Source of the DNA: Dehalococcoidia bacterium
Lineage (GTDB): Bacteria > Chloroflexota > Dehalococcoidia > Bin125
NCBI GenBank assembly: GCA_965200625.1
Contig: OZ241375.1
Coordinates: 8,234-72,233 of the forward strand
Direction of reading: 5' to 3'
Length of the DNA stretch: 64,000 nt
Under the pieces are notes generated by a model that worked only from the letters and a program-made list of their open reading frames with translations, ran no database searches and was not told the origin of the DNA. Shown here one piece after another: positions 4,118-29,573 of this stretch (positions within the stretch are counted from its first letter, which is position 1; each line of letters begins with the position of its first letter). A program made the translations under genes and the position numbers.

Positions 4118-4136
4118 TCTGCTCCTGAGCAGCAGC

Positions 4137-5100: not shown

Positions 5101-5180
5101 CGATCCTCCGCCCAGCTGGCTGCTCGCAGCCAATGGCAGACCTATCATGGCGGCGGACTGTTGTTTGAGGGGAGCTGGAG

Positions 5181-9254: not shown

Positions 9255-9495
9255 AAGACTTCCCCCTTTGGGGGAGCGCTGACCACTTTCGTCATTGCCG
9301 CGCGCCGCCGCGGCAATCTCGATGCGTACAGCAGCGAGGTCCGTGCTCGACGCGGCGAGATACCCGCGACGTAGTCGCGGGTATGACGGGGGAGGGGGCG
9401 CGGGTATGACGGAGGAGGGTGTGGCAAGGGTGCGCGGCGACCCCGCTTCAGTCGCTGCGCGACAGCTTCCCCCCAGTGGGGGGCAGCGAGAGAGC
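9255..9495. repeat. composite REP/BIME-like repeat (hairpin units GTCATTGCCGCG..CGCGGCAATCTCG, ATACCCGCG..CGCGGGTATGACGGAGG, CCCCGCTTCAGTCGCTGCGCGACAGCTTCCCCCCAGTGGGGGG)
   Basis: Near-identical copies at 20775-20985. The element overlaps the 3' end of the CDS at 9448-10269. Confidence 0.8.
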
Positions 9496-11920: not shown

Positions 11921-14185
11921 TCAACTCGTTGCAGTCGCACGTTCGCTGTTCCTTCGGCGCGAGCGGCGGGGGCGCAGCTCGAGCAGCGTCTCCGCCAACA
12001 GCATCGCGCGTTCCACCAGCGAGTGGCGCAGGATGTACTCGTCGTCGGTGCGCGCGTCGCCGCCGACGGGGCCGAGCCCGTCAATGCGGGCGGCGCTGTC
12101 GGGCGCGAAGCAGATATCGGCGGCGGCCCAGCGGTGGCGGGCGGTGACGGGATGGCTGAGGTCGCGGGCAACGCTCTGGATCGTCTCGAGCAGGGCGCGA
12201 TCACGGTCGGTGGGCTGCAGCGGCGGGCGGCCGGGCCGCGCGGCGACCTGCATCCGCACGCCCGGCACCGTGCGCGCGTTGGCGATCCGTTCGACGTTCT
12301 GATCGAGCGGCGTCCCCGCGGCGGGGTCGGTGAAGCGCAGGATCAAGTCGGTCTCCGCCCGCCAGGGCAGGCGCGCGCCGCCGGCGTCGAAGCGGATGCG
12401 GGTGATGTGCGCGTGGACGCCGCCCTCGGGCTGCTCGGGCAGTGCCGGGTCGGTGTCGGCGTCGAGCGGCGTTGGGCCGCGGCTCAGCTCCTGCAGCGCC
12501 AGGATGCGGTTGCTGAAGTGGCGCAGGACCTGTTCGGCGGAGACGTCGCGGCGCTGGCGGCGGAAGGTGGATTCGAGGTGGTAGCGCTGCTCGCCGGCGC
12601 GGGCGCTGATCAGGGAGCCGTCCGGATCGCCGGATTTGAGGCCGATCACGTGGCGGGCGCGACGGGCGGCCGCGTCGATCAGCGACTGTCCGCCAGCGCC
12701 GTTGTGCGCGCCGTCGCTGGTGAGCAGCACGGCGACCCGCAGCTGGCGCAGACGGCGGATGTGGCGCAGCCCGCGCAGCGCCGCCAGGGCGACGGCGACG
12801 CCGCCCTTCGCTTCCGCCACGCCGGAGCCGTAGAGACGCCGGTCATCGGCGCGGAAGGGCGCCAATTCGCTGGTCGAGGCGCCGGTGTCCAGATGGCCGA
12901 GCAGCAGCACGTCGTCGGTGTCTTCGTGATGGTTGCGGGCGAGCAGGGCGTGGCCGAGCGCGACGCGGGGCAGGCGTTCGACACGGAAGTTGAGCGTTTC
13001 GAGCTGGCGCGCGATCCAGTCGCCGAGCTGGTTGACGCGGTCAACCGCGTCGGTCGGCGTACGGATTTCGACCATCCGCCGCACGCTGTCCTCGATCGTC
13101 GCGGCGCTGCTGCGGATGTGCGTGCGCATCCGCGCGCGGGGACGCTCGGTCTGGTTGGCGGCGGCGTCCGCCTGCTGCGACTCGCGCAGCCGCTCCGCGC
13201 CGAAGTAGCGGATTGCGGCGACGTCGAGCATCCGGTTGATCAGCCCCTCGTAGCTGTAGCCGGCAGTCTGGGCGGCGTGGACGTAGGTGCCAGTCAGGCC
13301 GAGCGAGGCCATCGAGTTGATTTCCAGGATGTAGGGGCGGTTCGCGGCGTCGAGGCGCAGATCGACGCGGGCGAAGTCGTAGAGCTCGAGGCTGCGGAAG
13401 GCGAGCCGCGCGAGCTGCTGCAGCTCGGCGGTCTGCTCATCGCTCAGCGGGGCCGGGCAGAGCTTCTCGCGCGGGCGGCGGAGCTTGTCGCTGTCGGTCT
13501 GAATCGCGTTGGGATCGCCTTCGAGGTCGATCTCGACGATCGGCAGCACCTCCGGGTCGCCGTTGCCGAGCAGGCCAATCGCCAGCTCGCGGCCGGCGAT
13601 GAACTCCTCGACCAGCACGTGCTGGCCAAACTCGTTGATGATCGTCGCCACCGCCTCGCGCAGATCGGTTTCGTTCTCGACGATCCGGATGCCGTAGGAG
13701 ACCGCCTCCATCTTGGGCTTGACGATCAGCGGATGCTCGGGCGTGCAGACGAGGTCGGCGAAGACGTCGTCGACGGAGGCGAAGTTCCAGAATTTGGCGG
13801 TCGGCAGGCCGGCGGCCTGGAACATGATCTTGGCGATCACCTTGTCGAGCGCCATCCCGTGCGCCTGCGGGCCGGAGCCGACGTAGGGCACGCCGAGCAT
13901 CTCGAGCATCGCGGGCAGGTGGGTGTAGCGCGAGACGCCCTGGATCCCGTAGGCCATGTTGAAGACCATCCCGGGCCGCTCGCCGGCGAGCACGCGGGGC
14001 ATGAAGTCCTGCAGGCGTTCGACGATGTGCATGTTGCCGTCGATGATCCGCACGGTGTGCCCGCCCGCCTCCAGCGCTCGCGCCACGCGCTCGACGGTGC
14101 GCGGGTTGTAGCGCTCGCGGTTCTGAGGGCCAAAGACATTGATCACCCCGCTCGCATCACGGTTGTGGACAATGGCGACGCGCAT
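11921..14185 (-). CDS. fusion protein: N-terminal D-Ala-D-Ala-ligase-like ATP-grasp domain plus C-terminal M20-family metallopeptidase (ArgE/DapE/CPG2-like)
   Basis: Start MRVAIVHNRDASGVINVFG, with a GGGGAAGG SD-like sequence upstream. The C-terminal domain has LLLGHLDTGAS...GVAEAKGG, as in M20 peptidases. Confidence 0.8.
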   Translation of the reverse strand: MRVAIVHNRDASGVINVFGPQNRERYNPRTVERVARALEAGGHTVRIIDGNMHIVERLQDFMPRVLAGERPGMVFNMAYGIQGVSRYTHLPAMLEMLGVPYVGSGPQAHGMALDKVIAKIMFQAAGLPTAKFWNFASVDDVFADLVCTPEHPLIVKPKMEAVSYGIRIVENETDLREAVATIINEFGQHVLVEEFIAGRELAIGLLGNGDPEVLPIVEIDLEGDPNAIQTDSDKLRRPREKLCPAPLSDEQTAELQQLARLAFRSLELYDFARVDLRLDAANRPYILEINSMASLGLTGTYVHAAQTAGYSYEGLINRMLDVAAIRYFGAERLRESQQADAAANQTERPRARMRTHIRSSAATIEDSVRRMVEIRTPTDAVDRVNQLGDWIARQLETLNFRVERLPRVALGHALLARNHHEDTDDVLLLGHLDTGASTSELAPFRADDRRLYGSGVAEAKGGVAVALAALRGLRHIRRLRQLRVAVLLTSDGAHNGAGGQSLIDAAARRARHVIGLKSGDPDGSLISARAGEQRYHLESTFRRQRRDVSAEQVLRHFSNRILALQELSRGPTPLDADTDPALPEQPEGGVHAHITRIRFDAGGARLPWRAETDLILRFTDPAAGTPLDQNVERIANARTVPGVRMQVAARPGRPPLQPTDRDRALLETIQSVARDLSHPVTARHRWAAADICFAPDSAARIDGLGPVGGDARTDDEYILRHSLVERAMLLAETLLELRPRRSRRRNSERATATS

Positions 14186-14299
14186 GAACACCTTCCCCTG
14201 AGCACTGGCCGCAATCAGCGCGTCCGGCGCACTGCGGGCACTGTATGAGCAGAGTGCAGCCGCAACTAGCGGCCCATGTAATATCTGGCTCCCTGCCCA

Positions 14300-14480
14300 G
14301 CGCTCTCCAGAGAGGGAGCGCTGACTTCCGTCGTTCCTGCGAACGCAGGAACCCATCCGGCGTAGCGCTCAGGCGCTCACAGTGGGCAGCCCGCACGGTG
14401 ACCGGATCATTCGTCTGGGTTCCCGCTTTCGCGGGAACGACGGAAGGGGGTGAGCGGAGAGATGATGGGGGGGGGGGTGC
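14300..14480. repeat. REP-like hairpin repeats (CGTCGTTCCTGCGAACGCAGGAACCCA; TGGGTTCCCGCTTTCGCGGGAACGACGG) ending in a G11 homopolymer (14467-14477)
   Basis: Inverted repeats are readable. The G-run lies ~65 bp upstream of the FN3 gene start codon. Confidence 0.75.
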
Positions 14481-14543
14481 TACCGTGCATTGACGGATTA
14501 TGGCGGCTGACCTGCTTGGGGTTGGCGTGGAAAGGGTTGGGCT

Positions 14544-16780
14544 ATGCGGCTCGTGCGACTGTTGGTGGGGTTGGCGGCGCTGGTGGCGGTTTTGGCGGGC
14601 GGCTCGCTGGCGTTGGGGCAGACCTATGACGCGGGGCTGAACGCGAGCGTATCGGGCACGTATGTGCACGTGACCTGGAACGGCGACGTGGACGCGCCAG
14701 GGGGAGAGCAGGCGACCGGGTTTGCGCTGCAGCGGGCGGTCGCAGGGACGGAGCTGGGCGAGTGCAGCGACGCTCCGAGCGCGAGCGTGAGTCGGTTCCC
14801 GGAGTCGGGAGAGCTGAGCAAGGACGACTTCCGGAACTACACCGCAGTCGCGCTGACGCCGGGACAGAGTACACCTTCCGGCTCTGCGGGGCGTACGGGA
14901 GCAACGATACGTCGTACGCCATTCAATCGGTGAACGCCACGACGACCAGTCCCGCCGCCCTCGAGGGGCTCACCCTGGAGAAGATGGGCGGCAGCGTGCG
15001 GCTCAGCTGGAACGAGTACTCGAACGCTGACGGCGAGACCGCAGACCGTTACCGCCTCAATTGGGGACCGCTGGACACCGCCGCCAGCGGCGATGCCCAG
15101 TACCGGCGCATCCGGGAGAGCCGGGCGACCAAGGCGCAGGACGACATCTGCGACGCCGACGGCCTCTGCGCCATGAACATCATCGGCTTGACGAACGGAA
15201 CCGCGTACGGGTTCTGGGTGTTCGCGACCTACGCCGGACAAGGCGGCGGTCATGCCGCGGAGACGGAGCCGCGGACGGAGACGCCGGAGCTGCTCGAGCT
15301 GAAAGGCTTGACGCTCAGCGGCACGGCGGACGGCAAGCTCCTGGTCGAATGGGCCAGTGGTCCGAGTGGGACACAGCACTACCACGTGCGCTGGAAGGAA
15401 ACCGGCAGCATCGGCTGGCAGGGCATCATGCTGGACAAAGACGAGCGCAGCGTGGAGCTCGGCGGGATCACGCTGGGACACGACGTCTCGGTGGAAGCGG
15501 AAGCGCTGGTCGCCCGCAACCCGAGCATTGTCGCGGCGCGGGCGGAGGGCGAGACCTCGGCGCACATCGCGGTCAGCGCCAGCGCCGAGGCGCGGACCGG
15601 CACGCTCCACGTCGCCTGGGAGGTGCCGGACGACGTGGATCTGAGGAACGACTGGGGCGTCAACCGCTGGTCGATCACCTGTAAGCCGACGGATCCGGCG
15701 CACGGGTCGGGCGGCGGCAACATCAACCCGCCGGCGGACCATGATCACACGCTGCCCGTCCTGCCGATCGTGGAGCATCAGGTCACGATCAAGGGGCTGA
15801 CCTCCGACAACCGAGTGGTGGCGATGGGCAGCGCGACCGGCACGCCGAATCCGCTGCCGACGGCGCCCGCGATCGTGCCGCTGGGCGCGGTCACGACGAC
15901 GACGGTCGCCGCGGAATTCCCCGCAGTCCCCTACGATCCCGAGAATCCCGACAACCCCGAGGCGGGACCCAGCGTGCCGCCCGGCATTCGGGTTGAGTGG
16001 GAGTTGCCTGCGGGCGTCGCCGCCAATGACGTCAGCGTCTGGCGGGTCTGTGTGGACGGGCTGTGCTACCCGAACAATACGGTGAGCTCGGGGAGCACCC
16101 TGCGCGTGGTCTGGATTGGCTGCACGGAGGACGCCAACGAGATCTGCGACCCGGGTGAGCACGTCGTCAGCCCGAATCATCCGATTCAGATGAACACCTG
16201 CCACGAGATCGAGGTCACGGCCCTGAACCAGCACGAGCAGGTGCTGACACAGGGCACGGGCGAGGGCTGGGTGCTGGATCACAACGGCAACCCACCCGCC
16301 TGCGCCCCAGCCCCGCCGGCAGACGAGGAAGAAGAAGCCGAGCCGGGCGGCAGCGGCAACAACGTCGGAGGCGGCGGTGACAGCGGTGGAGGCGGTAACA
16401 GTGGCAACACGTACACGCCGCCGACGTCCAACTACGTACCGCAGTCCGCGTCGCAGCCGACGCCTGCGCCGCAGCCGGCACCCAAGTTAGCGATTGAAAC
16501 GATTGATCTGAGCCTGAGCTCACAGACGACCCTGCTGCGGGAGGTCGTGACGGCGACCATCGCGCTGAGCACCAGCGCCGGCGCGGCCATTGACGATACG
16601 GTCATGATCGATGTCAGCGGCGATCTGAATCTGCGCGTGCTGGACGTTGATCTGGAGGCGGGCGTTGCGTCTACCAACGGTGAGGTGACGGTGAGCTTTG
16701 AGGTTGTCGGCGGCGGTGGCTCGTCGACGATTACGGCGATGGTCGGCGATGACGATGATCCGGTGACCGCCTCGGCGTAG
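14544..16780 (+). pseudogene. large secreted fibronectin-type-III repeat protein (signal peptide, multiple FN3 modules, Gly/Pro-rich region), interrupted by a -1 frameshift at ~14861
   Basis: ORF 14544..14933 (frame 0, signal peptide MRLVRLLVGLAALVAVLAGGSLALG) and ORF 14762..16780 (frame 2) overlap. The FN3 consensus ...ALTPG|TEYTFRLCGAYGS is restored if one G is added to the GGG run. Confidence 0.7.
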
Positions 16781-17038
16781 GTGACGTTGGAGGCGGATCT
16801 GGACTGTTTGGCCGCGCGAGAGTGGAAGCTGGATACGTTCATGGTCTGGGCTTGCGAAGGCGAGATCGGGGCGGCGGAACTGTACGACGCCCTGCAGGAC
16901 GTTGGCTCGAGCGCCATTCTCTACTGGGATCGGGAGTCCGGCTGGCAGCGGTATGCGCAGTTGGCGAACGGGCAGCAGGTACCGGGTTCGGTTGAGTTCC
17001 AGCTGTCGCAGCACAGCATCGTGTGGTTGGCGAGCTAG
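16781..17038 (+). CDS. hypothetical small protein (85 aa), GTG start abutting the upstream stop
   Basis: ORF track, with a strong GC3 bias. Confidence 0.35.
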   Translation: MTLEADLDCLAAREWKLDTFMVWACEGEIGAAELYDALQDVGSSAILYWDRESGWQRYAQLANGQQVPGSVEFQLSQHSIVWLAS

Positions 17039-17039
17039 C

Positions 17040-17135
17040 CCCGCCGTGGCTGGGGGGCAGCGTCCCCCCAGCCCCTCCCTCCCCCCCCCAGTCACTTCGT
17101 GAGAATTCCCCCAGAGAGGGAGCTCTTGCGGGGCG
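17040..17135. repeat. REP-like repeat with a C9 tract (17081-17089)
   Basis: CCCCCCCCCAGTCACTTCGTGAGAATTCCCCCAGAGAGGGAG motif. Confidence 0.7.
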
Positions 17136-17161
17136 TATGCTGGGGGAGTGAATGGGGGGTG

Positions 17162-17473
17162 ATGGCGATTTTCAATACGGCTCGGTTGATGGGGGTGTTG
17201 GTTCGGGGGCGGATTGCGGAGCCGGAGAGGCAGATGGAGGCGGCGTTGGCGGAGTATGGGAGGCTGGATCGGATGGAGGCGATGGAGGCGCGGATCCTGC
17301 AGGCGCTGGCTGGGGTGTTGGCGCAAATGGCTGAGTTGGAGGCGAAGGCGGCGGCGCGGGAGGCGCAGGCGGCGGCGCGGGAGACTCGGCAGGCTCGGCA
17401 TCTCAATCAGGCGGTGGGGGTGATCCTGGGGGGGATTGCGATTGCGGTGGGGTTGATTATTGGGCTGGGGTGA
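17162..17473 (+). CDS. hypothetical protein with a coiled-coil and a C-terminal TM helix (MAIFNTARLMGVLVRGR...GVILGGIAIAVGLIIGLG)
   Basis: Internal ATG of ORF 17099..17473. Confidence 0.4.
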   Translation: MAIFNTARLMGVLVRGRIAEPERQMEAALAEYGRLDRMEAMEARILQALAGVLAQMAELEAKAAAREAQAAARETRQARHLNQAVGVILGGIAIAVGLIIGLG

Positions 17474-17487
17474 GCTGGCGGGGTTTG

Positions 17488-17650
17488 GGCGGCCCCCCTC
17501 AGTCACTTCGTGACAGCTCCCCCAGCGGGGGAAGTGCCCCGTCAGGGGAGATGGGGGGCTCTCCGGAGGCGCGGGACTTGGGCTCCCCCTTTAATCGCTT
17601 TGCGACGGCTTCACCCTGCTGGGGCAGCGAGGGTTGGGGGGATGGGAGGT
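17488..17650. repeat. REP-like repeat cluster
   Basis: CCCCTCAGTCACTTCGTGACAGCTCCCCCAGCGGGGGAAGTGCCCCGTCAGGGG and related motifs. Confidence 0.7.
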
Positions 17651-17717
17651 GTTGCGGGTTGGGTGGGGGTGCGCTATTTTCGGGCTCACGGCGCGTTTGA
17701 TGCTGGAGGGTGGCGCT

Positions 17718-20700
17718 ATGCGGGGCTCCGATTTCCGATCTCTCTTCCCGATGGGGCGCTGTGCTTCCTTGTTCCTGCTGGTTCTGCTGGCGGTTGGGGG
17801 TGGGCTGAGCCTGGGTTCGCTGCCGGCTGGCGCCCACACGAGCAGCAACCACGGCTACGTCACGCTGCTCGAGACGACGATGGTTGCCAAAGAGGAAAAT
17901 CTTGGGGCCCGGATCGGCCACGTTCGAGATAACGGTGCTTTGGCGGCAAAGACTTTCATTTATAAGGGGATCGAATATCACATTGACGGTATGTACGAGG
18001 ATACACAGGGTGAGGATACATTTAAATTCAGGACAACAAGGCCGCCTTCCACCAACTCGGACATCGGTCTGACGGAGGTCAACAAACTCAAGATTGAGAT
18101 CGATGGCAAGACCTTTGAAGGAGGATTTACGGCAGATACCTTCAGCACGAGGTACACACAGGCCGACAAGGGGTTAGATCTCTCAGACAACAAGACCGAA
18201 GCCACGAAGGCGACCGTCAAGATCAGCACGAAGGAGGTCCACCACGTCGCGCCTACCAACATTGCGGCTACCGCGCAGGGGACCACGACGCTCAGAGTAA
18301 CGTGGAACGACCCCCCCCGGGGCGACGGGCTTTCAGATCAGGCATAAGGCCACGAGCACCAGTACCTGGGGCTCCTGGTCGACGGCCACATTGTCAAATC
18401 CGAGTGACATTACGGGCCTGACGAGGGGCACGTCGTATAACATCCAGGTGCGGGCGGGCACCAACTCGGAGCCGGGGAACTGGGGCGCCGGGATCACGGC
18501 GTCGACGCCGACCCTGGACGCGCCCACCGGCGTTGCGGCGACGTCGCCTTCTTCAAGCCAGCTCACGGTCACGTGGAACGCTGTGACCGATGCGGACAGC
18601 TACCAGGTACGGTACAAGGCGTCGGGGACCAACAGCTGGGGGCACTGGGGAACGGCGACCTCGCCCACACCATCAACAACCTGGCGGCGAACACGCAGTA
18701 CGACATCAGCGTGCGGGGGCGGGACGGCAGCGACGCGGGCGATGCCACGACAATCATGAACGTGAGGACTTTGCGGCTGGCGGCGCCGGGCAACCTGGCG
18801 GCGACGTCGTCCGTCTCCACCCAGCTGGTGGTCACGTGGAGCGCCGTGACCAACGCGGCCAACTATCAGCTCCGGTACAAGCTCAACAGCAGCAGCAGCT
18901 GGGGGAGCTGGGGGACGGCGACCTCGCCGCGCACGATTACGGGTCTGACGGCGAACACGCAGTACAACATCGAGGTGCGGGCGCGGGACAGCAGCAATAG
19001 CGAGGGGGACGCTGCCGCCGTCACGGCGAGGACGCTGCTGGCTCCGCCGACCAATGAGGCGGCGGCGGCGGCGGTCGCGACCGAGCTGACGGTGACGTGT
19101 ACGGCGGTGAGCGGCGCGGCCAGCTATGAGGTGCGGCACAAACGATCCAGCACGAGCTCCTGGGGGAGCTGGGGAGCGGCGTCCTCGCCGCACGAGATTA
19201 CGGGGCTGACGGCGAATACGGAGTACGACATCGGCGTTCGGGCGAAGGACAGCAGCAACAACGCGGGGGAGGTGGCGAGCATCACGAACGTGCGGACGCC
19301 GCTGTCGCCGCCGACGGGGTTGTGGCATCCGACGGATACGGATGACTATGACCCGCGGTTCGGCAGATTCGGCAGCGGCTGGTGGGATGAGGACATGATC
19401 ACCGTGTTCTGGAACGCGCTGACTGATGCGGCCTCCTATGAGATGCGCTATCGCGCGGTCAAGGGGACGCAGGAGGATACCTGGTCGGCCTGGGCGGACG
19501 CCGATGAGTTTGACCGCGAGCATGGGCTGACGCTGTCTGATCTGTTCCCGGCGTACGCGGGGATCGAGTACGAGATCGAATTGCGGGGCGTGCATAGCAG
19601 CAACCGCAAGGGCGAGGCGACGTCGTACACGGCGCAGACGAAGTACAACGCGCCGACGGCGGTGTCCAATGTGCGGGTGGCGTCGAACGACGGGGAGCTG
19701 GCGGTCGCCTGGACGCCGAGGCGCCACAATGAGAGTTGGAGCGTGCGGTCGGAGCGGTAGGATGTGAACCAGATCGCGTCGGTGTCGGCGTCCGCGCCAC
19801 ACACGACGCTCACGGAGCTGGAAAGTGGCGTGGCGTACGGGATCCGGGTGCAGGCGCAGCGGGATCTGGGGACGGATCCGTTTGGCACACATCACATCGT
19901 GACCACGGGTTGGAGCGCCGTTGTCTACAGTATGCCAATGACGGCGCCGGGGTCGCTGACGGTGACGCCGGTGACGACTCGGGATCCGGACTTGATCTAT
20001 CGGCCACGGTTCCCGCTGCTGCCGCCGGGCACGCCGCTGCCGCCGCTGCCGGGGCTGCGGCCGGATGACGAGATTGTGAAGGACGGAGAGGCGCTGGAGA
20101 TCAGTTGGGAGGCGGTCGCGGGCGCGGCGACGTACGGCGGCTATCAAGTGGCGTTCCATCCGGGGAACAAAGCGCCGTCGAGCTGGCATACGCTGCTGCT
20201 GGAGGGGACGTCGTTCACGGTCGCGGGGGTGGATCCGTTGTATGTGGTGAGCGTGCGGGCGGTGGCGCAGATGCCGGATGATTCGATAGTCTACGGGCCG
20301 TACGCGAGCACTAGCGGCGTGATCGGGGTGAATCCGTCACCCAGTCCGGGTCCCAGTCCCAGCCCGTCGCCGAGTCCCAGCCCGAGTCCGAGTCCGCCAC
20401 AGGAGCCGATTGTGAGTCCGCATCCACCGTCTGGGGTGCGGCCAGTGCAGCCGAGTCCGCCGGTTGAGCAGCCGGGGATCAAACCGCCGACGGAGGGCAA
20501 GCCGCAGGAGCCAGCGGAGAGGGAGAGGCGGACTGCGCCGCCGGGCGCGCCGCCGCCGGACGACGGGGTGGGGATTAATCCACCGGGTCCGCCGCCGGGG
20601 CCGCTGCCGGAGCCGCCGGAGGACAGGCCGCCACCGAACGATGAGCCGCGGCCGGGTCTGCCGGGTCCGCCGCCGGATGACCGAGCGGGCATCTTCGGCC

Positions 20701-20726
20701 TCCTGTCGGGGGGGATGGTGCACTAG
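17718..20726 (+). pseudogene. very large secreted FN3-repeat protein (signal peptide, ~7 FN3 modules, Pro/Ser-rich C-terminus). Disrupted by a +1 insertion in a C8 run (18311-18318), a -1 change at the CCC run at 18664-18666, and an in-frame TAG at 19758-19760.
   Basis: Consecutive ORFs 17634..18347 (frame 0), 18391..18759 (frame 1), 18573..19760 (frame 0) and 19764..20726 (frame 0) all carry the same FN3 periodicity (L.V.W...YQVRYK...WG.WG...ITGLTANTQY.I.VRA). The domains continue seamlessly across each break. Confidence 0.7.
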
Positions 20727-20734
20727 CTGGCTGC

Positions 20735-21350
20735 GGGGGGAGCCCCCCTCAGTCACTTCGTGACAGCTCCCCCGGTGGGGGAGCGCTGAGCACTTTCGTC
20801 ATTGCCGCGCTCCGCCGCGGCAATCTCGATGCGTACAGCAGCGAGGTCCGTGCTCGACGCGGCGAGATACCCGCGACGTAGTCGCGGGTATGACGGAGGA
20901 GGGCGCGCGGGTATGACGGAGGAGGGGGCGGCAAGGGTGCGCGGCGACCCCGCTTCAGTCGCTGCGCGGTAGCTTTCCCCTTTGGGTGAGCGCTGAACAC
21001 TTTCGTCATTGCCGCGCTCCGCCGCGGCAATCTCGGCGTGTACAGCAGAGTGGTCCGTGCTCGAAGCGTCGAGATACCCGCGGCAAGCGCGGGTATGACG
21101 GAGGTGGATGGCGCGGGAACGACGGAGGTTGGTGGGCGCGGAGCTGGTGGAGTAGAGCGGGGAGTCCCCTCAGTCCACCCTTCTGTCATTGCCGCGCGCC
21201 GCCGCGGCAATCTCGGCGCGTACAGCAGAGTGGTCCGTGCTCGAAGCGTCGAGATACCCGCGGCAAGCGCGGGTATGACGGAGGTTGGTGGGCGCGGGAA
21301 CGACGGAGGTGGTGGGTGCGGGGATGATGGGGCTCGCCTCCATTTGTGTG
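20735..21350. repeat. tandem array of four ~150-210 bp composite REP/BIME-like units
   Basis: Units start at about 20775, 20986 and 21181. Each contains the GTCATTGCCGCG(c/t)(c/g)CCGCCGCGGCAATCTCG and GAGATACCCGCG...CGCGGGTATGACGGAGG hairpins. Confidence 0.85.
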
Positions 21351-21357
21351 GGGGTGG

Positions 21358-22272
21358 TCAGCTGAGGCCGAGGCGGTGGCGGGCGTTGGTGGCTAGCACT
21401 TGGTCTAGTTCTTGGTCGGTGAGACCGCTGCGGAGGAGTTGGAGGATTTGTGGCTGTTGGTCGGCGCCGGGGGCGTCGGAGCCGAAGAGGACGCGCTCCA
21501 CGCCGAGCGTGCGGATCAGCCGGGCGGCGTCCTCGAGGGCGCAGGCGCGGCGGCCGTCGCGGCAGCGGAAATGGCCGTCGTCGAAGCCGCCGGCGGTGTC
21601 GAAGAGCACCTGGGGGAAGCGTCTGGCGATCGCCAGGCGCTGATCCCAGTACGCGCCGGGCATGTGCGCCATGATGAACGGGAGCCGCGGGAAGCGTTCG
21701 AAGACGGGGATGAAGTGGTCGGGCATCCCGTAGACGTCGGCGCCGGGGCCGCCGCGCAGGGCGCCGGTGTCGCTGAGGATGGGCAGGCCGAGCTCCTCGA
21801 GTCGGGCGTAGAGCGGGAGCATCCGTTCGTCGGCGGGGAAGTAGCGGCCCAGGCCCGGGTGCATCTTGACGCCGCGCGCGCCCAGGGCGACGCCGCGCTC
21901 TAACTCCTCCATCAGCAGGTCGGTCTCCGTCCAGGTGCCGATGTCACAGCAGAGGAAGGTGCGGATGCGCGGGTCGGCCTGCTGGCGTTCGAGCGTCCAG
22001 GTGTTGAAGTCGCGCACGCGCTGGCGGAGCATGGTGTGAATGTCGTCGTCCGACGCTTCGGGCCGGCGGGCGCGCTGCTGCTCGAACATTTCGGGGATGA
22101 CCATGTAGTTGAGGCCGACGATCGCCTCGACGTCGTTGCGGGTCATGTACTCCGCGCAGGCTTCGCCGTTGGCCCAGCGCCAGTCGAGCGGGAGGCCGGG
22201 GCGAGGGAAGACGATCGCCTCTTGCTGCGCGGTGCGGCAGAGGTGGACGTGGACATCGATCACGGTGGGCAT
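21358..22272 (-). CDS. amidohydrolase-2 family (TIM-barrel metal-dependent hydrolase, LigI/ACMSD-like)
   Basis: ORF track. MPTVIDVHVHL... is the typical PF04909 N-terminal HxH. Confidence 0.85.
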   Translation of the reverse strand: MPTVIDVHVHLCRTAQQEAIVFPRPGLPLDWRWANGEACAEYMTRNDVEAIVGLNYMVIPEMFEQQRARRPEASDDDIHTMLRQRVRDFNTWTLERQQADPRIRTFLCCDIGTWTETDLLMEELERGVALGARGVKMHPGLGRYFPADERMLPLYARLEELGLPILSDTGALRGGPGADVYGMPDHFIPVFERFPRLPFIMAHMPGAYWDQRLAIARRFPQVLFDTAGGFDDGHFRCRDGRRACALEDAARLIRTLGVERVLFGSDAPGADQQPQILQLLRSGLTDQELDQVLATNARHRLGLS

Positions 22273-22289
22273 AGGACAACCTCAGGGAT

Positions 22290-22390
22290 TCTTCGGCAGG
22301 CGGGCGGTGAGACAGTCCGTGTAGTGCGGGGTCTGATGCTCGGCGCTGCTCGCGTGCGCGCTGGCGCGTAGATGGATTGCACGCCCCGCG
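22290..22390. other. degenerate duplicate of the 3' end of the lutB/A gene (compare 23434-23545)
   Basis: Decaying sequence similarity continues beyond the 90 bp near-identical segment. Confidence 0.5.
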
Positions 22391-22391
22391 C

Positions 22392-23246
22392 TCAGCCCTC
22401 CGAGACGGCCACTCCCACGGTGATGACCCCTGTGTAGCCGTTCCTGTCTTCAGCGACCGAAGCGAGCAGATTCCATTCCTCGGGATTCCCCCGCAGCTCC
22501 CCGTCATTTTCGTTGCGGGTTGAGCGGTTGGGGCGATTGTTGTAGGGGGAGCGGAGGTAGACCTGATCCGTCAGTTCGTCGTCGAAGTAGAATTGCGAGG
22601 TCAAGAACGTCGTCCCGCGGTAGTGGACCTTGAAGTGGATGTGCGCGGTCCGTCCAGGGTACCAACCTGGGTAGACGGTCTCAAAGCGCGCGATGCCATC
22701 GGCGTCGGTCACCTGTACTCCGCGCAGGAAGGTCTCGCCGGACGTGTCCAGGCCCCCGAGTTGACCGCGGTATCCCGAGTAGACGCCATCGGCGTCGGCG
22801 TGCCACAGGTCGACCACGGCGTCTGGGAGCGGCGCGCAGGTATTGCCCATTCGCAGGACGCGGACCGCCATCGCCAGCGGGGCGCCGGAGCGGTCTTCAG
22901 TGATGTCGCGCCGGAGCATCTCGGTGTCGAAGTAGAACGGCCCTTCGGTTGCCTCCGGGGTGAGGATGCAGGCGGGCGGATCGGAGAGCGCGTCCGCCAC
23001 GGAGGCGGTGTCCGTCGTCGCGGTCTGCGCCGCGGCCCTTTCCCCACTCGCGGCCGTTGCGGAGCTGGCGGACGCCGGCTGAACCTCCTCCTCGACAGGG
23101 CCAGGGGCCGCCGTGCCGGGTTCTCCACTCCCGGGCACTCCCCGGCAGGCCGCCGCGAGCGCCACCGCGAGCCCGCCCACACCGAACGTCGCGAGGAAGT
23201 CACGCCGCGTGAATCGCGCTGACCACTGGCGGGCGTTCTTCATCAT
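22392..23246 (-). CDS. intradiol ring-cleavage dioxygenase family protein with a Tat signal peptide
   Basis: RRDFLATFGVGGLAVALAAACRG, and TEGPFYFD...VDLWHADADGVYS...GRTAHIHFKV (PF00775-like). Confidence 0.8.
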   Translation of the reverse strand: MMKNARQWSARFTRRDFLATFGVGGLAVALAAACRGVPGSGEPGTAAPGPVEEEVQPASASSATAASGERAAAQTATTDTASVADALSDPPACILTPEATEGPFYFDTEMLRRDITEDRSGAPLAMAVRVLRMGNTCAPLPDAVVDLWHADADGVYSGYRGQLGGLDTSGETFLRGVQVTDADGIARFETVYPGWYPGRTAHIHFKVHYRGTTFLTSQFYFDDELTDQVYLRSPYNNRPNRSTRNENDGELRGNPEEWNLLASVAEDRNGYTGVITVGVAVSEG

Positions 23247-23336
23247 CGCTGGCTCCGCTCTTCAGCCCACCGCGACCCTACCATCGTCGGCCCAAATGTC
23301 GAGCGAGTAGTAGCGACGGTTCCCGCCCCTCGGAGG

Positions 23337-23434
23337 CAGGGGCAGACGATCGCCTCTTGCTGCGCGGTGCGGCAGAGGTGGACGTGGACATCGATCACGG
23401 TGGGCATGGGACAACCTCAGGGATTGTTCGGCAG
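23337..23434. repeat. ~90 bp near-identical direct duplicate of 22188-22280, carrying the start and first ~20 codons of the amidohydrolase gene
   Basis: On the minus strand it reads MPTVIDVHVHLCRTAQQEAIV followed by unrelated sequence. It differs from copy 1 by 2-3 mismatches. Confidence 0.8.
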
Positions 23435-25597
23435 TCGCGCGGCGAGGAACTCGGCGTAGTGCAGGGTCTCGTGCGCCGCGCCGCGTGCGGCGGCTCCGGC
23501 GCGGAGGTGGAGGACGCAGCCGGGATTGTTGGTGAGCAGCGTGTCGCAGCCGCTCGCGGCGACGCAGTCGAGCTTGCGCTCGAGAATGCCCTCACCGACT
23601 TCGGGAGCGGCGAGCGAGGTGAGGCCACCGAAGCCGCAGCAGATCTCCGCCTCGTCCAACGGCAGCGCGGACTCGCCGGTGAGCCGCGCGGTCAGCTGAT
23701 CGATGCGCGAGCCGGGCTCGGCGCGGTTGGAGGCCTGACAGAAGCGGTGCGCCGTCCACGCGCTTGCTTCCGCCGCGGGGGCGCGGAGACCGCCGTCCGG
23801 CAGGCGGCCGGGGCCGTCGAGCCAGGCGGCGAGGTCGTGGACGCGCTCGCCGACCGCCGCGGCGCGCTCGCGCCAGGCGGGGTCATCGCGGAAGAGTTGC
23901 GGCCAGTGATCGCGCATCGCGATCACGCAGCTGGTCGCGGGCGTGACGATCGCGCGGTCGCTGGCTTCGAGCGCCTCGATGGTCTGCTGCGCCATTCGCC
24001 GCGCGGTTGGCCAGTCGCCGGCGTCGAAGGCGGGGAGGCCGCAGCAGTGCTGCGCGTCGGGCAGATTGACCGCTGCGCCGCCAGCCTCGATCAGCTTGGC
24101 GGCGGCGTCGACGGTGGAGGGCAGCAGGCGATCGGCGAGGCATTGGGCGAAGAGGTCGACGGTGCGGCCGTTCGCGGGCGACTCGGTGATTGGTTCCTGC
24201 GGCGGGCGGCTGCCGATCAGCGTCTGGCCGCTGCGCAGCGGGAGCGTCGGCACGGCGCGCCAGCGGAGGCGTTTGGGCAGCGGCAGGCGGAGGTGGTCGC
24301 GGCGCGCCAGGCCGAGCAGGCGGGCGGCGGCGGAGGCAAGCGCGCCGATCCCGAAGAGCGTCTGGAAGAGTGTTGGCTGCGACCAGAGGCGCAGGGCGAG
24401 CCGCTCCCAGCGCGGGGCGTGCCCGGACTCATGGGCGCGGCGGCGGACTTCGAGGATTTGCTGGGGCAGCGGGATCGCGACCGGGCAGACGGTCTCGCAG
24501 GCGCCGCAGGAGACGCACAGCCCCTGCGGGCCGGCGGCGTCGGCGACGCTGTGGTGGAAGGTCGTGTTGACCAGGCCGATCGCGCCCGTGTAGATGTGGC
24601 CGAAGGTGTGCCCGCCGACGACCTGGTAGGGCGGGCAGACGTTGGCGCACGCGCCGCAGCGGATGCAGCGCAGGGCGTCGCCGATCACGTCGTGATCGCG
24701 CATCGCGCGGCGGCCGTTGTCGAGCAGGATGATGTGCATCTCTTTGCCCGGTTGGGCGCCGGTGATGCAGGTCGTGTAGGTGCTCAGCGTCTGCGCAGTG
24801 GCGGAGCGGGGCAGGAGCTGGAGCTGGCGTTCGGCGTCGGCCCAGGTGGGGATCAGCTTCTCGATGCCGGCGGTGACGAAGTGCACGTCGGGCAGCGAGG
24901 TGGCGAGCCGCATGTTGCCCTCGTTGGTGACGACCATGATGCTGCCGCTCTCGGCGATCAGCGAGTTCGCGCCGGTGAGGCCGGCGCCGGCGGCGAGGTA
25001 ATGTCCGCGCAAGCCGTCCCGCGCGCTGGCGACCATCGCGGGGATGTCGTCGGGATCGAACTCGCGCCCCAGCTCGCGCCCGAGAATTTCGGCGACGTAT
25101 TGACGCTTTTGGTGAATCGCCGGCATCACCAGGTGCGACGGACGCTCCTCCGCCAGCTGCAGCAGCCACTCGCCGAGGTCGGTCTCGATCGCGGTGATCC
25201 CGCGCTGCTCCAGCGCGTGGTTGAGTTCGATCTCCTCGGAGACCATCGACTTGCTCTTGACGACCAGGTCGATGCCGCGCGCGCGGCAGACGGCGGCGAT
25301 GTAGTCGACCGCCTCGGCCGCGGTCGTGAGTTCGACGACCGTCGCGCCGGCGGCTTCGGCGTTGCTGCGGAACTCCGCGATGTAATCATCGAGGCGGGCG
25401 AGCGTCTGATCCTTGGTCGCGGCGAACGCCTGGCGGAGTTCGTCGAAGGGTTGCTCGGTGCGCTGTTCGAGGCGGCGCACCTGGGCGTCGCGGCTCTCGC
25501 GCCAGGAGCGCTGGAAGGCAAGCAGGCGGGGCCGCAAATCGGGATCGCGGACGGCGCGGCGGTAGCGCTCGCGGAAGGGCGCGGTGGCGGCGCTCAT
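23417..25597 (-). CDS. lutB: lactate utilization Fe-S protein, a LutB (DUF162/LUD plus 2x 4Fe-4S) and LutA (CCG domains) fusion
   Basis: CIRCGACANVCP and CVSCGACETVCP ferredoxin motifs. CCGLPAF and CCGFGG cysteine-rich domains. Confidence 0.85.
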   Translation of the reverse strand: MSAATAPFRERYRRAVRDPDLRPRLLAFQRSWRESRDAQVRRLEQRTEQPFDELRQAFAATKDQTLARLDDYIAEFRSNAEAAGATVVELTTAAEAVDYIAAVCRARGIDLVVKSKSMVSEEIELNHALEQRGITAIETDLGEWLLQLAEERPSHLVMPAIHQKRQYVAEILGRELGREFDPDDIPAMVASARDGLRGHYLAAGAGLTGANSLIAESGSIMVVTNEGNMRLATSLPDVHFVTAGIEKLIPTWADAERQLQLLPRSATAQTLSTYTTCITGAQPGKEMHIILLDNGRRAMRDHDVIGDALRCIRCGACANVCPPYQVVGGHTFGHIYTGAIGLVNTTFHHSVADAAGPQGLCVSCGACETVCPVAIPLPQQILEVRRRAHESGHAPRWERLALRLWSQPTLFQTLFGIGALASAAARLLGLARRDHLRLPLPKRLRWRAVPTLPLRSGQTLIGSRPPQEPITESPANGRTVDLFAQCLADRLLPSTVDAAAKLIEAGGAAVNLPDAQHCCGLPAFDAGDWPTARRMAQQTIEALEASDRAIVTPATSCVIAMRDHWPQLFRDDPAWRERAAAVGERVHDLAAWLDGPGRLPDGGLRAPAAEASAWTAHRFCQASNRAEPGSRIDQLTARLTGESALPLDEAEICCGFGGLTSLAAPEVGEGILERKLDCVAASGCDTLLTNNPGCVLHLRAGAAARGAAHETLHYAEFLAARLPNNP

Positions 25598-26118
25598 GCG
25601 AGCACCGCGGCGGTCAGGCGGCTCGGGCCCTGCACGCCGATGGTGAGCGAGCGCTCGATGTCGGCGGTGCGCGAGGGGCCGCTGACGAAGGTCGCGTAGG
25701 CGGCGGCGCGCGGCTGCTGCGCGAGCCAGCGGAAGCCGTCGGCGAGATCGTCCACGATGTCCGCCTCCGCCACGGCGACGATCAGGTGCTGCGTGAGCAG
25801 CGACACGGCGCGGTCAACGGGCGCGGGTTCGATCAGCAGCAGGGAGCCGGTCTCGGCGACGGCGAGCGTCGCCACGGTGATCCCGACCGGGTGGTCGGCG
25901 ATGGAGCGCAGCGGGTCGTCCGGCTCGGGCAGGCGTCCGCGCTGGAGGTGCGCATACGCGCTCGGCGAGACGGCGGGGAGCGCGTCGCTGAGCGACTCGG
26001 CGTACTGCCAGAGGTCGTCCCACGAGGCGCAGAACAGCGGCTCGCCCTGCACCGCCTGGAGGGCAGCGGCGAAGCTGGCGGTGCGACGGTTCGCGGGAGA
26101 CAGGGTGGGGTCGGGCAT
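25594..26118 (-). CDS. lutC: lactate utilization protein C (LUD domain)
   Basis: ORF track. There is a 4-bp ATGA overlap with lutB. Confidence 0.8.
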   Translation of the reverse strand: MPDPTLSPANRRTASFAAALQAVQGEPLFCASWDDLWQYAESLSDALPAVSPSAYAHLQRGRLPEPDDPLRSIADHPVGITVATLAVAETGSLLLIEPAPVDRAVSLLTQHLIVAVAEADIVDDLADGFRWLAQQPRAAAYATFVSGPSRTADIERSLTIGVQGPSRLTAAVLA

Positions 26119-26221
26119 GGGGGAATTCTACAAGCCGTCAGCGCGGCCTCCGGGGGCTCGGGCTCCAGCGCAGGTACGCTGGCGGCGAGGACTTGATGAT
26201 CCGACGAGGGGAGCGCAGGCG

Positions 26222-27376
26222 ATGATTGAGCTGACCGAGGCGCAGCGCCTGATCCAGCGGACCGTGCGCGATTTTACCCGCGATCAGATTGATCCGATTG
26301 CGGACAAGATAGACCGCGAGGATTACTTTCCCCGCCAGCTCTGGCCGCAGCTGGGTGCGCTCGGGCTGTTGGGCGTGACGATTGCGGAAGCGTACGGCGG
26401 CGCGGACGCGGGCCTGTTGGCGGGGGTGATCGCGACCGAGGAGATCGCGCGGGGGAGCGCGTCGATCGCGCTGTCCTACGGGGCGCACGCCAACCTCTGC
26501 GCGAACAACATCGCCGCGAACGGCTCGGAGGCGCAGAAGCGGCAGTATCTGCCCGGTCTCTGTGACGGCACGCAGATCGGCGCGCTGGCGCTGACCGAAC
26601 CGGAGGCGGGTTCGGACGCGCTGGGCATCCGCACGACCGCTGTGCGCGACGGCGACGTCTACCGCCTCAACGGCAGCAAGATGTTCATTACAAACGGGTC
26701 GGTGGCGGACACGCTGGTGCTCTACGCGAAGACTGACCCGGCGGCCGGCTCGCGCGGGGTGACAGCGTTCATCGTCGAGTCAGCGTTTGCGGGGTTCCGC
26801 GTCGGGCAGGTGCTGGACAAGGTGGGCCACCGCGGCTCGCCGACGGCGGAGCTGATTCTCGAGGACTGCATCGTGCCGGCCGCGAACGTGCTGCGCCGCG
26901 AGGGCGGCGGCGCGGGCGTGATGATGCAGGGGCTGGCGGTCGAGCGGGCGTTCCTCGCGGGCGAGCCGCTGGGGATCGCGCAGGCGGCGCTTGATGAAGC
27001 GGTCGAGTACGCGCGCAACCGCCGGCAGTTCGGTCAGCGGATCGGCGATTTCCAGCTGATCCAGGCGATGCTGGCGGATATGTACACGGAGCTGGAGGCG
27101 GCGCGCTGGCTGGTCTATCGGACGGCGCATCTGGTCGAGCAGGCGGCGGCGCGCGGCGAGCGCAGCAACAAGGAGGCGGCTGCGGCAATCCTCTATTCCG
27201 CCGAGATGTCCAGTCGGGTGGCGGACAAGGCCGTGCAAATCCACGGCGGCTACGGCTACATGAGCGAGAGCCGAGTCGCCCGCTACGTCCGCGACGCCAA
27301 GCTGCTCGAGATCGGCGCGGGCACGTCAGAGATTCGGCGGATGCTGATCGGGCGGGAGTTGATTGGTCCCGAGTGA
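26222..27376 (+). CDS. acyl-CoA dehydrogenase
   Basis: Internal ATG MIELTEAQRLIQRTVRDFTRDQI...YGGYGY. The ORF-track upstream extension is antisense to lutC. Confidence 0.9.
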   Translation: MIELTEAQRLIQRTVRDFTRDQIDPIADKIDREDYFPRQLWPQLGALGLLGVTIAEAYGGADAGLLAGVIATEEIARGSASIALSYGAHANLCANNIAANGSEAQKRQYLPGLCDGTQIGALALTEPEAGSDALGIRTTAVRDGDVYRLNGSKMFITNGSVADTLVLYAKTDPAAGSRGVTAFIVESAFAGFRVGQVLDKVGHRGSPTAELILEDCIVPAANVLRREGGGAGVMMQGLAVERAFLAGEPLGIAQAALDEAVEYARNRRQFGQRIGDFQLIQAMLADMYTELEAARWLVYRTAHLVEQAAARGERSNKEAAAAILYSAEMSSRVADKAVQIHGGYGYMSESRVARYVRDAKLLEIGAGTSEIRRMLIGRELIGPE

Positions 27377-27394
27377 CGGAGCTACGTCAAGAGC

Positions 27395-27795
27395 CCGCTT
27401 TCCCTGAGGGGAGCCCCCCTCAGTCGCTCCGCGACAGCTCCCCCAGAGGGGGGAGCACTGATTCCATCGTTCCTGCGCAAGCAGGAACCCAAGCGGAGTC
27501 GCGTTTCCGCCGGTGTCGCTCGGTCACGTCGTCAATGCGGCGCTCTCGCTGCTTGGGGGGTGATTTCGGCCATCGTATGGGTTCCCGCGTTCGCGGGAAC
27601 GACGGTGGGGGTGGACGCGCGGATGATGGGGTGTTCGCCTCCCCCTTCCGTCGTTCCTGCGCAAGCAGGAACCCAGACGGTGGGAGTGGGCGCGAGGGTG
27701 ATGGGGTGCTCGCCAGCTTCGGGAGCCCCCCTTCAGTCGCTGCGCGACAGCTTCCCCCAGAGGGGGGCAGCGGGGGATTTGGTTAGCTGCTGAGG
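27395..27795. repeat. dense cluster of REP-like hairpin repeats (CCCCTCAGTCGCTCCGCGACAGCTCCCCCAGAGGGGGG; CGTCGTTCCTGCGCAAGCAGGAACCCA x2; TGGGTTCCCGCGTTCGCGGGAACGACGG)
   Basis: Readable inverted repeats shared with 14300-14480, 57975-58215 and other sites. Confidence 0.85.
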
Positions 27796-28310
27796 AGGAT
27801 GCGGCGGCCTTGCTCGTAGGCGTCAAGGGCGCGGGCCTGGAGTTCTTCGGGGCTGGCGCTGCCGATGGGGTGGTTGACGAGGGCGTAGCGGAAGTCGGGC
27901 ATGCCGAGGGTCTTGGCGATCATTCGCCCGGTTGGGTCGAAGGGGTGCGTGCAGAGGACGAGGCCGGGCTTGCCGTACTGCTCGAAGGAGATGCCGTCGT
28001 GCACACTGCACGTGGAGCAGGAGCCTCAATCGCCGACCGCGGTGATCAGGAAATCGACGTCATTGGCGATCCGTTCCAACACCTGCGGCTCGGCGATGCG
28101 GCTGGCGTTGCGCTTGCCGCTGTCGATCACGATGCGGCAGTCCGCCTCGCGCTCGAACACTTCGGCGGTGTAGCGCAGCAGCCGGTCGGCGTTGACCTTG
28201 CCGTTGGAAAACAGGCCGATCCGCAGGCCGTCGAGCGCAGTCAGGCGCGGCGCGGCGCGGAAGCCGGTGGGTGTGGGGTCGCCGGTCGGGTCGAAGAGTT
28301 CCAGGGCCAT
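27783..28310 (-). CDS. candidate UGSC-family selenoprotein (~175 aa) with selenocysteine encoded by an in-frame TGA at 28026-28028
   Basis: ORFs 28026..28310 and 27783..28004 are in the same frame, separated only by TGA. The context ...FLITAVGD-U-GSCSTCS... gives a U-G-S-C / UxxCxxC motif. A hairpin lies 13 nt downstream. Confidence 0.5.
27998..28012 (-). promoter_or_regulatory. candidate minimal bacterial SECIS hairpin (mRNA CGUGCA-GUG-UGCACG) 13 nt 3' of the UGA
   Basis: A perfect 6-bp stem with a GUG loop, read from the sequence. Confidence 0.35.
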
Positions 28311-28334
28311 CAGTTGCTCCGTCTGAGATTCGGG

Positions 28335-29393: not shown

Positions 29394-29573
29394 GCTGCGA
29401 GTCTAGAGGCACGGCGAGGGACGCGGAGGGTCAGGCGGCGGAAGCGGCTCACGAACGCGCGCAGGGATTGGTTCGTCGAACCGAACTGACCATCTAAACT
29501 GGCAGCGGCGGCGCGGCGGGACGGATCCGGACGCGCGGCGAGCGGTTGTCAACGCGGCGGTCAAGGGGCGGCG

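Follow-up and report, generated by a model that had tools for sequence, protein, structure and literature searches.

In a 64,000-nucleotide (nt) stretch of a Dehalococcoidia metagenome-assembled genome (MAG; contig OZ241375.1, positions 8,234 to 72,233, hereafter the window), an array of composite hairpin repeats fills the gap between two convergent genes, and related hairpin modules are present at other intergenic sites. The array and its relatives are genuine, and their central element is a recently characterised hairpin repeat, the Ssn-related motif (SRM), organised into arrays that resemble Neisseria intergenic mosaic elements (NIMEs) and bacterial interspersed mosaic elements (BIMEs). We propose, with a probability of roughly 0.6, that the clusters are hairpin-repeat mosaics operating at the level of DNA, that their core SRM hairpins are recognised by an Ssn-type nuclease, and that the array was formed by tandem amplification. 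The newer part of the finding is a pair of accompanying modules, A and B, which are a candidate for a second, undescribed hairpin system. The original prediction, made from the sequence of the window, described a single family of repeats resembling repetitive extragenic palindromes (REPs) or BIMEs and listed 12 sites that carry it.

Hairpin family and its association with ssn genes in other genomes

The core element is an oriented hairpin with a GTC prefix, which occurs in the window in 16 full copies and additional half-sites. In the alignment of the 16 hairpins, the motif YCCGTC precedes a stem with 9-bp arms and a 3-7-nt loop, and a C follows the second arm; the total length is 26-31 nt. 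The 5' arm CCGTCRTWSCYGCG, with up to one mismatch, has 23 matches in the window versus 1.4 expected; 22 of these are at the 12 listed sites, and 22 of the 23 are positioned in intergenic gaps or at gap edges; the element is multicopy and almost entirely extragenic. The stems are paired in 98.5% of the alignment cells, and four of the nine base pairs have changed on both sides (AT/GC, TA/AT, CG/GC, and CG/TA). The covariation score is 0.356 versus 0.125 in shuffles; none of 500 shuffles reaches the observed value, and no slid register approaches it. The compensatory changes in the stems, described in the original prediction, are therefore real, and base-pairing is supported by covariation. The non-palindromic flanks are kept in the alignment as well: T10, C11, and C36 are invariant, G9 is nearly so, and the head of the element is CCGTC. 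Individual hairpins fold as single-stranded DNA (ssDNA) with energies from -5.6 to -13.3 kcal/mol.

Judged by its sequence, the GTC-prefixed hairpin is a member of the NTS/dRS3/SRM family. The 28-nt Neisseria Transformation Sequence (NTS, CGTCATTCCCGCGMAVGCGGGAATCYRG) encompasses the dRS3 repeat (Chenal et al. 2025, PMC11893778). It is bound and cut by SsnA, a 94-residue GIY-YIG protein that acts on the NTS as ssDNA only and is inactive on RNA, and Ssn target hairpins are bound and cut in both Neisseria and Wolbachia, again only when single-stranded (PMC11893778). The NTS bases 5' of the palindrome govern cleavage, whereas the C located 3' of the palindrome governs binding (PMC11893778). Homologues of the cd10448 type from various phyla are flanked by related hairpins, the SRMs, typically in inverted copies, and ssn is present in 81% of the genomes that contain more than 200 SRMs (PMC11893778). 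Our literature search returned no follow-up papers on SRMs.

The window contains members of this family close to the published consensus. Residues 58090-58117 correspond to the NTS with one mismatch, which is the maximum allowed in the NTS search of Chenal et al. (PMC11893778), and residues 61516-61543 and 14415-14442 correspond to it with two mismatches, versus 0.00 matches expected by chance. Exact dRS3 sequences are present at two sites (58089-58114 and 61515-61540; 0 expected). The published SRM pattern HGTCWYN(0-2)YYVSBRHN(0-5)WNVSBRGN(0-2)RNCYNB has five matches, four of which are real copies, versus 0.78 in shuffled sequence.

The variant CGTCGTTCCYGCG-NNN-GCRGGAAC is present in at least 119 genome stretches, found in a scan with CGTCGTTCCYGCGNNNGCRGGAAC that covered one genome per species. 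The hosts among the matches listed include Massilia, Duganella, Cupriavidus, Lysobacter, Luteibacter, Alphaproteobacteria, and approximately 30 Dehalococcoidia or Chloroflexota MAGs. A tblastn search through about 900 kb of the CGTCGTTCCYGCGNNNGCRGGAAC stretches, with a GIY-YIG query sequence, identified four GIY-YIG genes encoding proteins of about 95 residues of the cd10448 type. All four genes have SRM-type hairpins on both sides, approximately 30-135 nt away. In the Dehalococcoidia locus L104, the order SRM(+), ssn, SRM(-) has near-perfect terminal symmetry, and homologues of the encoded protein, one of which is a named Chloroflexota protein, bear the Pfam GIY-YIG domain PF01541.

Adjacent hairpins in the window form six convergent doublets, in which SRM(+) and SRM(-) are separated by a spacer and the outer edges are 94-111 nt apart. 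In the genomes among the matches listed, 45 of 77 adjacent hairpin pairs are convergent, with outer distances of 62-102 nt. The spacers inside the doublets are unrelated between sites, except for those of the array copies, which have the same sequence. The doublets can be read, by analogy, as gene-less counterparts of the SRM-ssn-SRM arrangement, in the same way as doublets of REPs (REPINs) relate to the genes of REP-associated tyrosine transposases (RAYTs).

Composite array and dispersed mosaics

The array is composed of three composite units with starts at about 20735, 20945, and 21151 (Table 1); the original prediction had counted four. The 115-nt cores of the units start at positions 20790, 20997, and 21177, and thus are spaced by 207 and 180 nt, and the units are 75-94% identical to each other. 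Each unit begins with a module A head, which is full, degenerate, or truncated, and continues with SRM(+) with a ATTGCCGCG arm, a 40-nt spacer, SRM(-) with a ATACCCGCG arm, and the 5' half of an SRM, before ending in a G-rich tail. At its ends, the composite core has terminal inverted repeats of 21 nt with 81% complementarity. Folded as ssDNA, the core of unit 1 (20790-20904) has an energy of -38.9 kcal/mol (z = -4.7) and that of unit 2 of -37.2 kcal/mol (z = -5.0), while the solitary doublet at 14314-14449 reaches -46.9 kcal/mol (z = -7.9). Clustered regularly interspaced short palindromic repeats (CRISPR) were rejected as an identity for 20727-21357, as the spacers are repeated together with the hairpins in units of 75-94% identity.

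Hairpin modules are present at all 12 of the listed sites, which contain 38 of the 39 module matches, and just one match sits well inside a gene. According to the approximate gene map, modules fill 13 of the 33 gaps of at least 30 nt (~40%), including all four large convergent gaps but only two of the eight divergent ones, and the claim that they occupy most intergenic spaces was therefore too strong. Outside the large convergent gaps, most module copies are located just downstream of a gene. The C and G runs of variable length (C7-C9 and G11), previously assigned to the loops, lie in or beside the stem arms. In two SRM(-) elements (58144-58207 and 60185-60248), insertion of a 23-nt hairpin (CCCCTG-gcttgca-CAGGGG) has interrupted the stem. 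Because it is present twice with 95% identity, the interrupted form has itself been copied.

Comparison of insertion sites with those of relatives shows that clusters are missing at two orthologous positions. The Dehalococcoidia MAG L034 is syntenic with the window, with nucleotide identities of 83% for the aldo/keto reductase (AKR) gene and 75% for the CaiB-like gene. The convergent gap between these genes is 35 nt long and repeat-free in L034, whereas in the window it holds the 211-nt A/B cluster (55022-55232); L034 has a 370-nt A/B/SRM cluster on the opposite side of the AKR gene. The second site lies downstream of the amidohydrolase gene next to the array, where three relatives with 82-89% amino-acid identity in the amidohydrolase have no module.

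Differences in copy number are also found. L120, a 10.5-kb contig from an ENA metagenome, matches window positions 12109-22494 almost exactly, but contains two tandem 107-nt A+B units at 4892-5106, where the window has one (17496-17603). The junction of the extra unit resembles recombination between neighbouring module A copies; the unit is either a copy-number polymorphism or an assembly artefact, as the contig name suggests low (3x) coverage. The high-GC Dehalococcoidia MAG L118 (OY282355.1) contains, at 1177-1700, a nine-copy head-to-tail array with a period of 59 nt, the unit of which combines an NTS-type hairpin with a GTCATCCCCGCC half site. This array was also rejected as CRISPR because its spacers are identical.

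Table 1. Positions of the array, its flanking genes, and the other hairpin-module clusters in the window
Feature	Position	Strand	Components and remarks
Dispersed copy of the composite unit of the array	9255-9490	+	9261-9473 is 95% identical to 20768-20980 (213 nt), 11.5 kb apart; full module A follows
Convergent SRM doublet	14314-14449		SRM(+) 14328-14353; SRM(-) 14418-14443; then G11 run
A / small open reading frame (ORF) / A+B / A cluster	17076-17640	+	Degenerate A 17076-17121; ORF 17126-17473; A+B 17487-17561; second degenerate A ~17578-17634
fn3-protein gene, one flank of the array gap	19764-20726	+	
Convergent intergenic gap, 631 nt, wholly filled by the array	20727-21357		From L120 gene calls, Pfam, and sequence reading
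Composite unit 1	20735-20944	+	Module A 20737-20786; SRM(+) 20796-20825; 40-nt spacer; SRM(-) 20866-20896; SRM 5'-half site 20906-20919; tail
Composite unit 2	20945-21150	+	Degenerate module A 20945-20990; SRM(+) 21003-21032; SRM(-) 21073-21101; half site 21112-21125; tail
Composite unit 3	21151-21340	+	Truncated module A head ~21160-21175; SRM(+) 21183-21212; SRM(-) 21253-21281; half site 21293-21306; GGGGATGATGGGGCTCGCC tail
amidohydrolase_2 gene, other flank of the array gap	21358-22272	-	
Mosaic in convergent gap	27408-27766		A(+) 27408-27456; SRM(+) 27464-27489; SRM(-) 27580-27605; SRM(+) 27648-27673; A(+) 27721-27766
1.9 tandem module A copies (-) and B-like module (-)	55022-55232	-	Convergent gap between AKR and CoA-transferase family III (CaiB-like) genes
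B/A/SRM mosaic	57977-58207	+	B(+) 57977-58001; A(+) 58043-58088; NTS-type SRM(+) 58089-58114; interrupted SRM(-) 58144-58207
Interrupted SRM(-), second copy	60185-60248	-	95% identical to 58144-58207
A/SRM hybrid head and modules	61383-61543	+	B(+) 61414-61438; A(+) 61471-61516; SRM(+) 61515-61540 (exact dRS3)
Solitary module A	62744-62789	+	H1 stem with compensated variant GTCCC/GGGAC; C8 run adjoins
B/SRM/A cluster	63694-63826		B(+) 63694-63717; SRM(-) 63769-63794; A(-) 63807-63826

Modules A and B

The motifs that the original prediction grouped into one family are at least three unrelated modules, A, B, and the GTC hairpins, which differ in their distribution. The core of module A consists of a CCCCTCA lead followed by two hairpins, GTCRC-NNN-GYGAC and GCTCCCC-loop-GGGGAGC, which are separated by an A. 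The sequence TCAGTCRCTNCGYGACAGCT, with up to three mismatches, has 11 matches in the window versus 0.09 expected. Module A folds with an energy of -22 kcal/mol, and some window copies form three small hairpins. A hairpin upstream of module A, H0 (TGAGGGG/CCCCTCA), was rejected as a general feature: it folds in some window copies, but was found in 6 of 114 cases versus 4 in the control. In the window, the junction GGGGGAGCGCTGA..CTTYCGTC links module A to SRM(+) at least five times.

The reverse complement of module A accounts for the reading frames that end in ...GELSRSD, as noted in the original prediction. The ORF 9448-10269 (-), which contains an N-formylglutamate amidohydrolase (FGase) domain, draws its last residues (...GGKLSRSD*) and stop codon from module A. 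In the annotation of such MAGs, the repeats create spurious ORFs (...GELSRSD*) and can provide real genes with stop codons.

The motifs are plentiful in other genomes and metagenomes, and thus are not a local artefact. Module A was found in at least 120 metagenome stretches, with a nearly unchanged sequence across varied GC content. Among 119 metagenome copies analysed, the second hairpin is present in 118, and in 116 the R and Y of the first hairpin form a Watson-Crick pair (G..C in 86 and A..T in 30). The hosts include contigs labelled human gut (56-63% GC), contigs of approximately 70% GC, and at least one that is AT-rich, L123, where module A is located in an 84-nt gap between two genes. 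Module B accompanies module A and lies about 40 nt from it in the high-GC metagenome loci. A larger repeat, about 460 nt long, also includes module A; it is found at positions 9285-9745 of L126 and in about 30 other contigs with 56-63% GC, several of which are labelled human gut (e.g. L128, L137, and L161).

Matches of module A in IMG/VR are mostly in high-GC (71-74%) clusters of portal, protease, capsid, and terminase-like genes (L247, L260, L272, and about 10 related contigs), where the module occupies small intergenic gaps. We take these phage-head-like clusters to be alphaproteobacterial gene transfer agent (GTA) loci and not free phages. A phage-borne partner of module A is unsupported, as the matches are GTA-like clusters with the module in small gaps.

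Searches for a partner or a known family of module A gave the following results. Clustering of the ORFs that neighbour module A returned only the repeat itself and LysR regulators, the genes enclosed by inverted module A pairs are unrelated to each other, and 805 kb of module A metagenome loci contain no GIY-YIG gene. No relevant paper was found for the module A strings or for 'GELSRSD' among the papers searched. An Rfam scan of the whole window at the gathering threshold returned nothing, and permissive scans of two clusters returned only generic long-hairpin miRNA models and a sub-threshold match to BjrC68. The latter (20.7 bits versus a gathering score of 39) was rejected, as its alignment rests on a terminator-like stem. 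The fixed junction between SRM and a cross-phylum module A that has neither an Rfam family nor a partner among its neighbours points to a further hairpin system. Module A might be a protein-recognised hairpin element with its own cognate enzyme, parallel to SRM and Ssn, and the mosaics would then represent at least two independent ssDNA-hairpin systems that insert adjacently at a fixed junction. We advance this idea tentatively, with the odds against it.

Proposed origin, genomic context, and known systems

In the explanation that we favour, the founder of the array would be one heterologous doublet of an ATTGCC-arm and an ATACCC-arm hairpin, equipped with a half site and a module A head. Tandem duplication or unequal recombination may have amplified this founder into the three-unit array at 20727-21357, and the founder unit was probably copied once to 9255-9490. 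An Ssn-type nuclease encoded elsewhere in the Chloroflexota genome would recognise the ssDNA hairpins during replication, repair, or DNA uptake, and the stems would be kept because recognition requires hairpin formation. Such recognition could drive the spread of the hairpins, or could use them to modulate recombination. Modules A and B are distinct conserved hairpins assembled together with the SRMs. It is possible that the SRM doublets are non-autonomous elements mobilised by Ssn; if this is true, a new class of mobile element would exist, with Ssn as its nuclease.

Several points weigh against recognition of the clusters by an Ssn-type nuclease. How Ssn could multiply repeats is unexplained, as noted by Chenal et al. 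(PMC11893778). Most window copies, which have GTCGTT, ATTGCC, and ATACCC arms, fall outside the dRS3 pattern or the SRM regular expression when these are applied strictly. In the GTCG type, the mismatch to the SRM pattern is at W, but it is this type that borders the GIY-YIG genes of L006, L037, and L104. A search with the GIY-YIG query and Pfam scans of about 50 ORFs identified no GIY-YIG gene in the 64-kb window, and the source contig encodes no Ssn homologue among the best 120 of 2949 homologues. GIY-YIG nucleases are not known to ligate. Covariation is no proof of an ssDNA hairpin, because palindromes can be maintained by template-switch repair or be read as duplex DNA by dimeric proteins. 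The clusters are also located at gene 3' ends, where a function in RNA is conceivable.

At the RNA level, the clusters would act in transcripts as terminators devoid of a U-tract or as 3' stabilisers against exonucleases, a role known for some REP elements, and the stems would be RNA structures. The occupancy of all four large convergent gaps, the position of most other copies just 3' of a gene, the very stable folds (doublet z scores between -4.7 and -7.9; module A at -22 kcal/mol), and the one real gene that terminates within module A are in agreement with this. However, the region scanned, 14000-28500, contains no stem followed by a T run at the repeats, module A and SRMs point either way with respect to the gene upstream of them, modules also fill two divergent gaps, and no Rfam family matches. 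The unpaired flanks CCGTC and CCCCTCA are kept in sequence across phyla, and therefore recognition by a protein fits better than generic RNA structure; in addition, Ssn is inactive on RNA (PMC11893778). An RNA-level role is unlikely overall, but we retain it as a possibility because of the 3'-end location and the strong folds.

The likelihood is lower again that the clusters are classical REPs or BIMEs whose REPIN doublets are moved by a RAYT (a Y1 transposase of the IS200/IS605 kind) with its gene elsewhere in the genome. Inverted palindrome doublets in mosaic clusters are the architecture of REPINs and BIMEs, and the window shares with them extragenic imperfect palindromes, inverted doublets, mosaic clusters, and copy-number dynamics. 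Nevertheless, the sequences match NTS/SRM and have the head CCGTC instead of a GTAG-type head, the gene flanked by the hairpins elsewhere encodes a GIY-YIG protein and not a Y1 transposase in all four loci with an identified flanked gene, and no Y1_Tnp match was found among the window ORFs scanned. The motif is near-identical across phyla, whereas REPs are usually lineage-specific. The REP/BIME-like description in the original prediction thus applies to extragenic structured hairpins in mosaic, BIME-like clusters, but not to classical REPs, as the GTC hairpins are of the NTS/dRS3/SRM type. The 21-nt terminal inverted repeats with 81% complementarity and the dispersed copies are also what miniature inverted-repeat transposable elements would have, that is, insertion sequence deletion derivatives moved by a DDE transposase acting on terminal inverted repeats. 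This origin is very improbable: target-site duplications were not seen at the doublet borders by inspection, the window contains no transposase, each apparent terminal repeat is a whole hairpin from a family linked to a nuclease gene, and the spacers between the doublet arms are unrelated from site to site, like the RS elements of NIMEs.

The window has a GC content of 65-75% along its length and 69% overall, with a positive GC skew throughout. It is mostly coding, although the gene map is approximate, with Pfam scans covering about 50 ORFs. The genes are ordinary metabolic ones according to Pfam, including those for CoA-transferases, acyl-CoA dehydrogenase, luciferase-like monooxygenase, amidohydrolase_2, and enolase-superfamily proteins, together with AddA/AddB and fn3 proteins; a tRNA scan of the window found none. 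Proteins with 86-89% identity are encoded on contigs of 2.4-3.5 Mb, and, where named, the members of one such cluster are MAGs of 'Chloroflexi/Chloroflexota bacterium'. The next named protein matches after these Chloroflexota relatives are from Dehalococcoidia. The closest relatives of the source MAG are presumably sponge-associated, judging by their accession series.

The window contains several other repeats and modules. A tandem duplication of approximately 980 nt is located at 3225-5089, where 3225-3444 and 4203-4422 are 97% identical (220 nt), 3951-4106 and 4934-5089 are 71% identical, and the small ORFs have no Pfam matches. The 12-nt sequence GGTAGGTCACTG is repeated 4.2 times, perfectly, at 42348-42397 inside an AddB-like ORF (39620-42799, -); the repeat is in frame, with four codons per unit, and its length could vary. 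Genes for an HNH endonuclease (42812-43207, -) and an N6/N4 DNA methylase (43262-44455, -) are positioned directly upstream of the AddB/AddA genes, and the pair at 42812-44455 may be a small restriction-modification-like or mobile module. The fn3-domain genes at 18514-19286 contain three internal direct repeats of about 261-263 nt with 67-89% identity, which correspond to repeated fn3 domains. A 177-nt direct repeat with 84% identity (22200-22376 and 23335-23511) has no relation to the hairpin modules. One copy spans the 5' end of the amidohydrolase gene plus upstream sequence, and the other spans the gap upstream of the dioxygenase gene along with the 3' end of the LUD/Fer4 gene. Three successive minus-strand ORF fragments with coding-like GC3 (27783-28025, 28026-28334, and 28335-29402) may represent a single gene at 27783-29402 that stop codons or sequencing errors have split; the only fragment searched against Pfam (28335-29393) had no match.

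The first description of Ssn nucleases and the hairpins that they target dates only from 2025. The window extends NIME-like arrays beyond Neisseria. Its doublets and tandem arrays differ in presence and copy number between close relatives, and its four arm variants, half sites, and interrupted hairpin provide natural material for studying Ssn specificity and repeat spread.

The system of NTS/dRS3/SRM repeats and Ssn shares with the window the succession of CGTC, a ATTCCCGCG-type arm, a short loop, a complementary arm, and C, the extragenic and multicopy distribution, and, for the same variant elsewhere, inverted copies around a gene for a GIY-YIG protein of about 95 residues. In contrast, the window host is a Chloroflexota MAG with 69% GC, from a phylum absent from the main text of PMC11893778, the window arms are mostly GTTCCY, ATTGCC, and ATACCC, outside the published SRM regular expression, and the copies are arranged in doublets and a tandem array, fused to other modules. 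NIMEs consist of ATTCCC-N8-GGGAAT dRS3 hairpins around 50-150-bp RS spacer repeats of many families; their arrays are located beside genes, vary in copy number between genomes, and as of 2007 had not been observed outside Neisseria (PMC1797815). The window has a similar succession of hairpin, 40-110-nt spacer, and hairpin, two exact dRS3 sites, and dynamic arrays. However, the hairpins arrayed here carry ATTGCC and ATACCC arms and form convergent doublets accompanied by half sites. Within the array, one spacer sequence recurs, consistent with tandem duplication, and modules A and B take part. The window arrays are an analogue of NIMEs and not a member, because restriction to Neisseria belongs to the definition of NIMEs and the window host belongs to Chloroflexota/Dehalococcoidia.

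The REP, BIME, and REPIN systems resemble the window clusters in that palindromes lie outside genes, inverted doublets form long hairpins, clusters are mosaic, and the repeats flank a cognate gene. They differ in that the cognate family of SRMs is a GIY-YIG nuclease, the GTAG head is missing, and the motif is shared across phyla. A comparable array, from the same class and also with high GC content, is that of L118, in which an SRM-containing unit is likewise amplified head-to-tail; however, its unit has a single hairpin in one orientation, whereas the composite unit of the window spans 180-207 nt and includes an inverted doublet.

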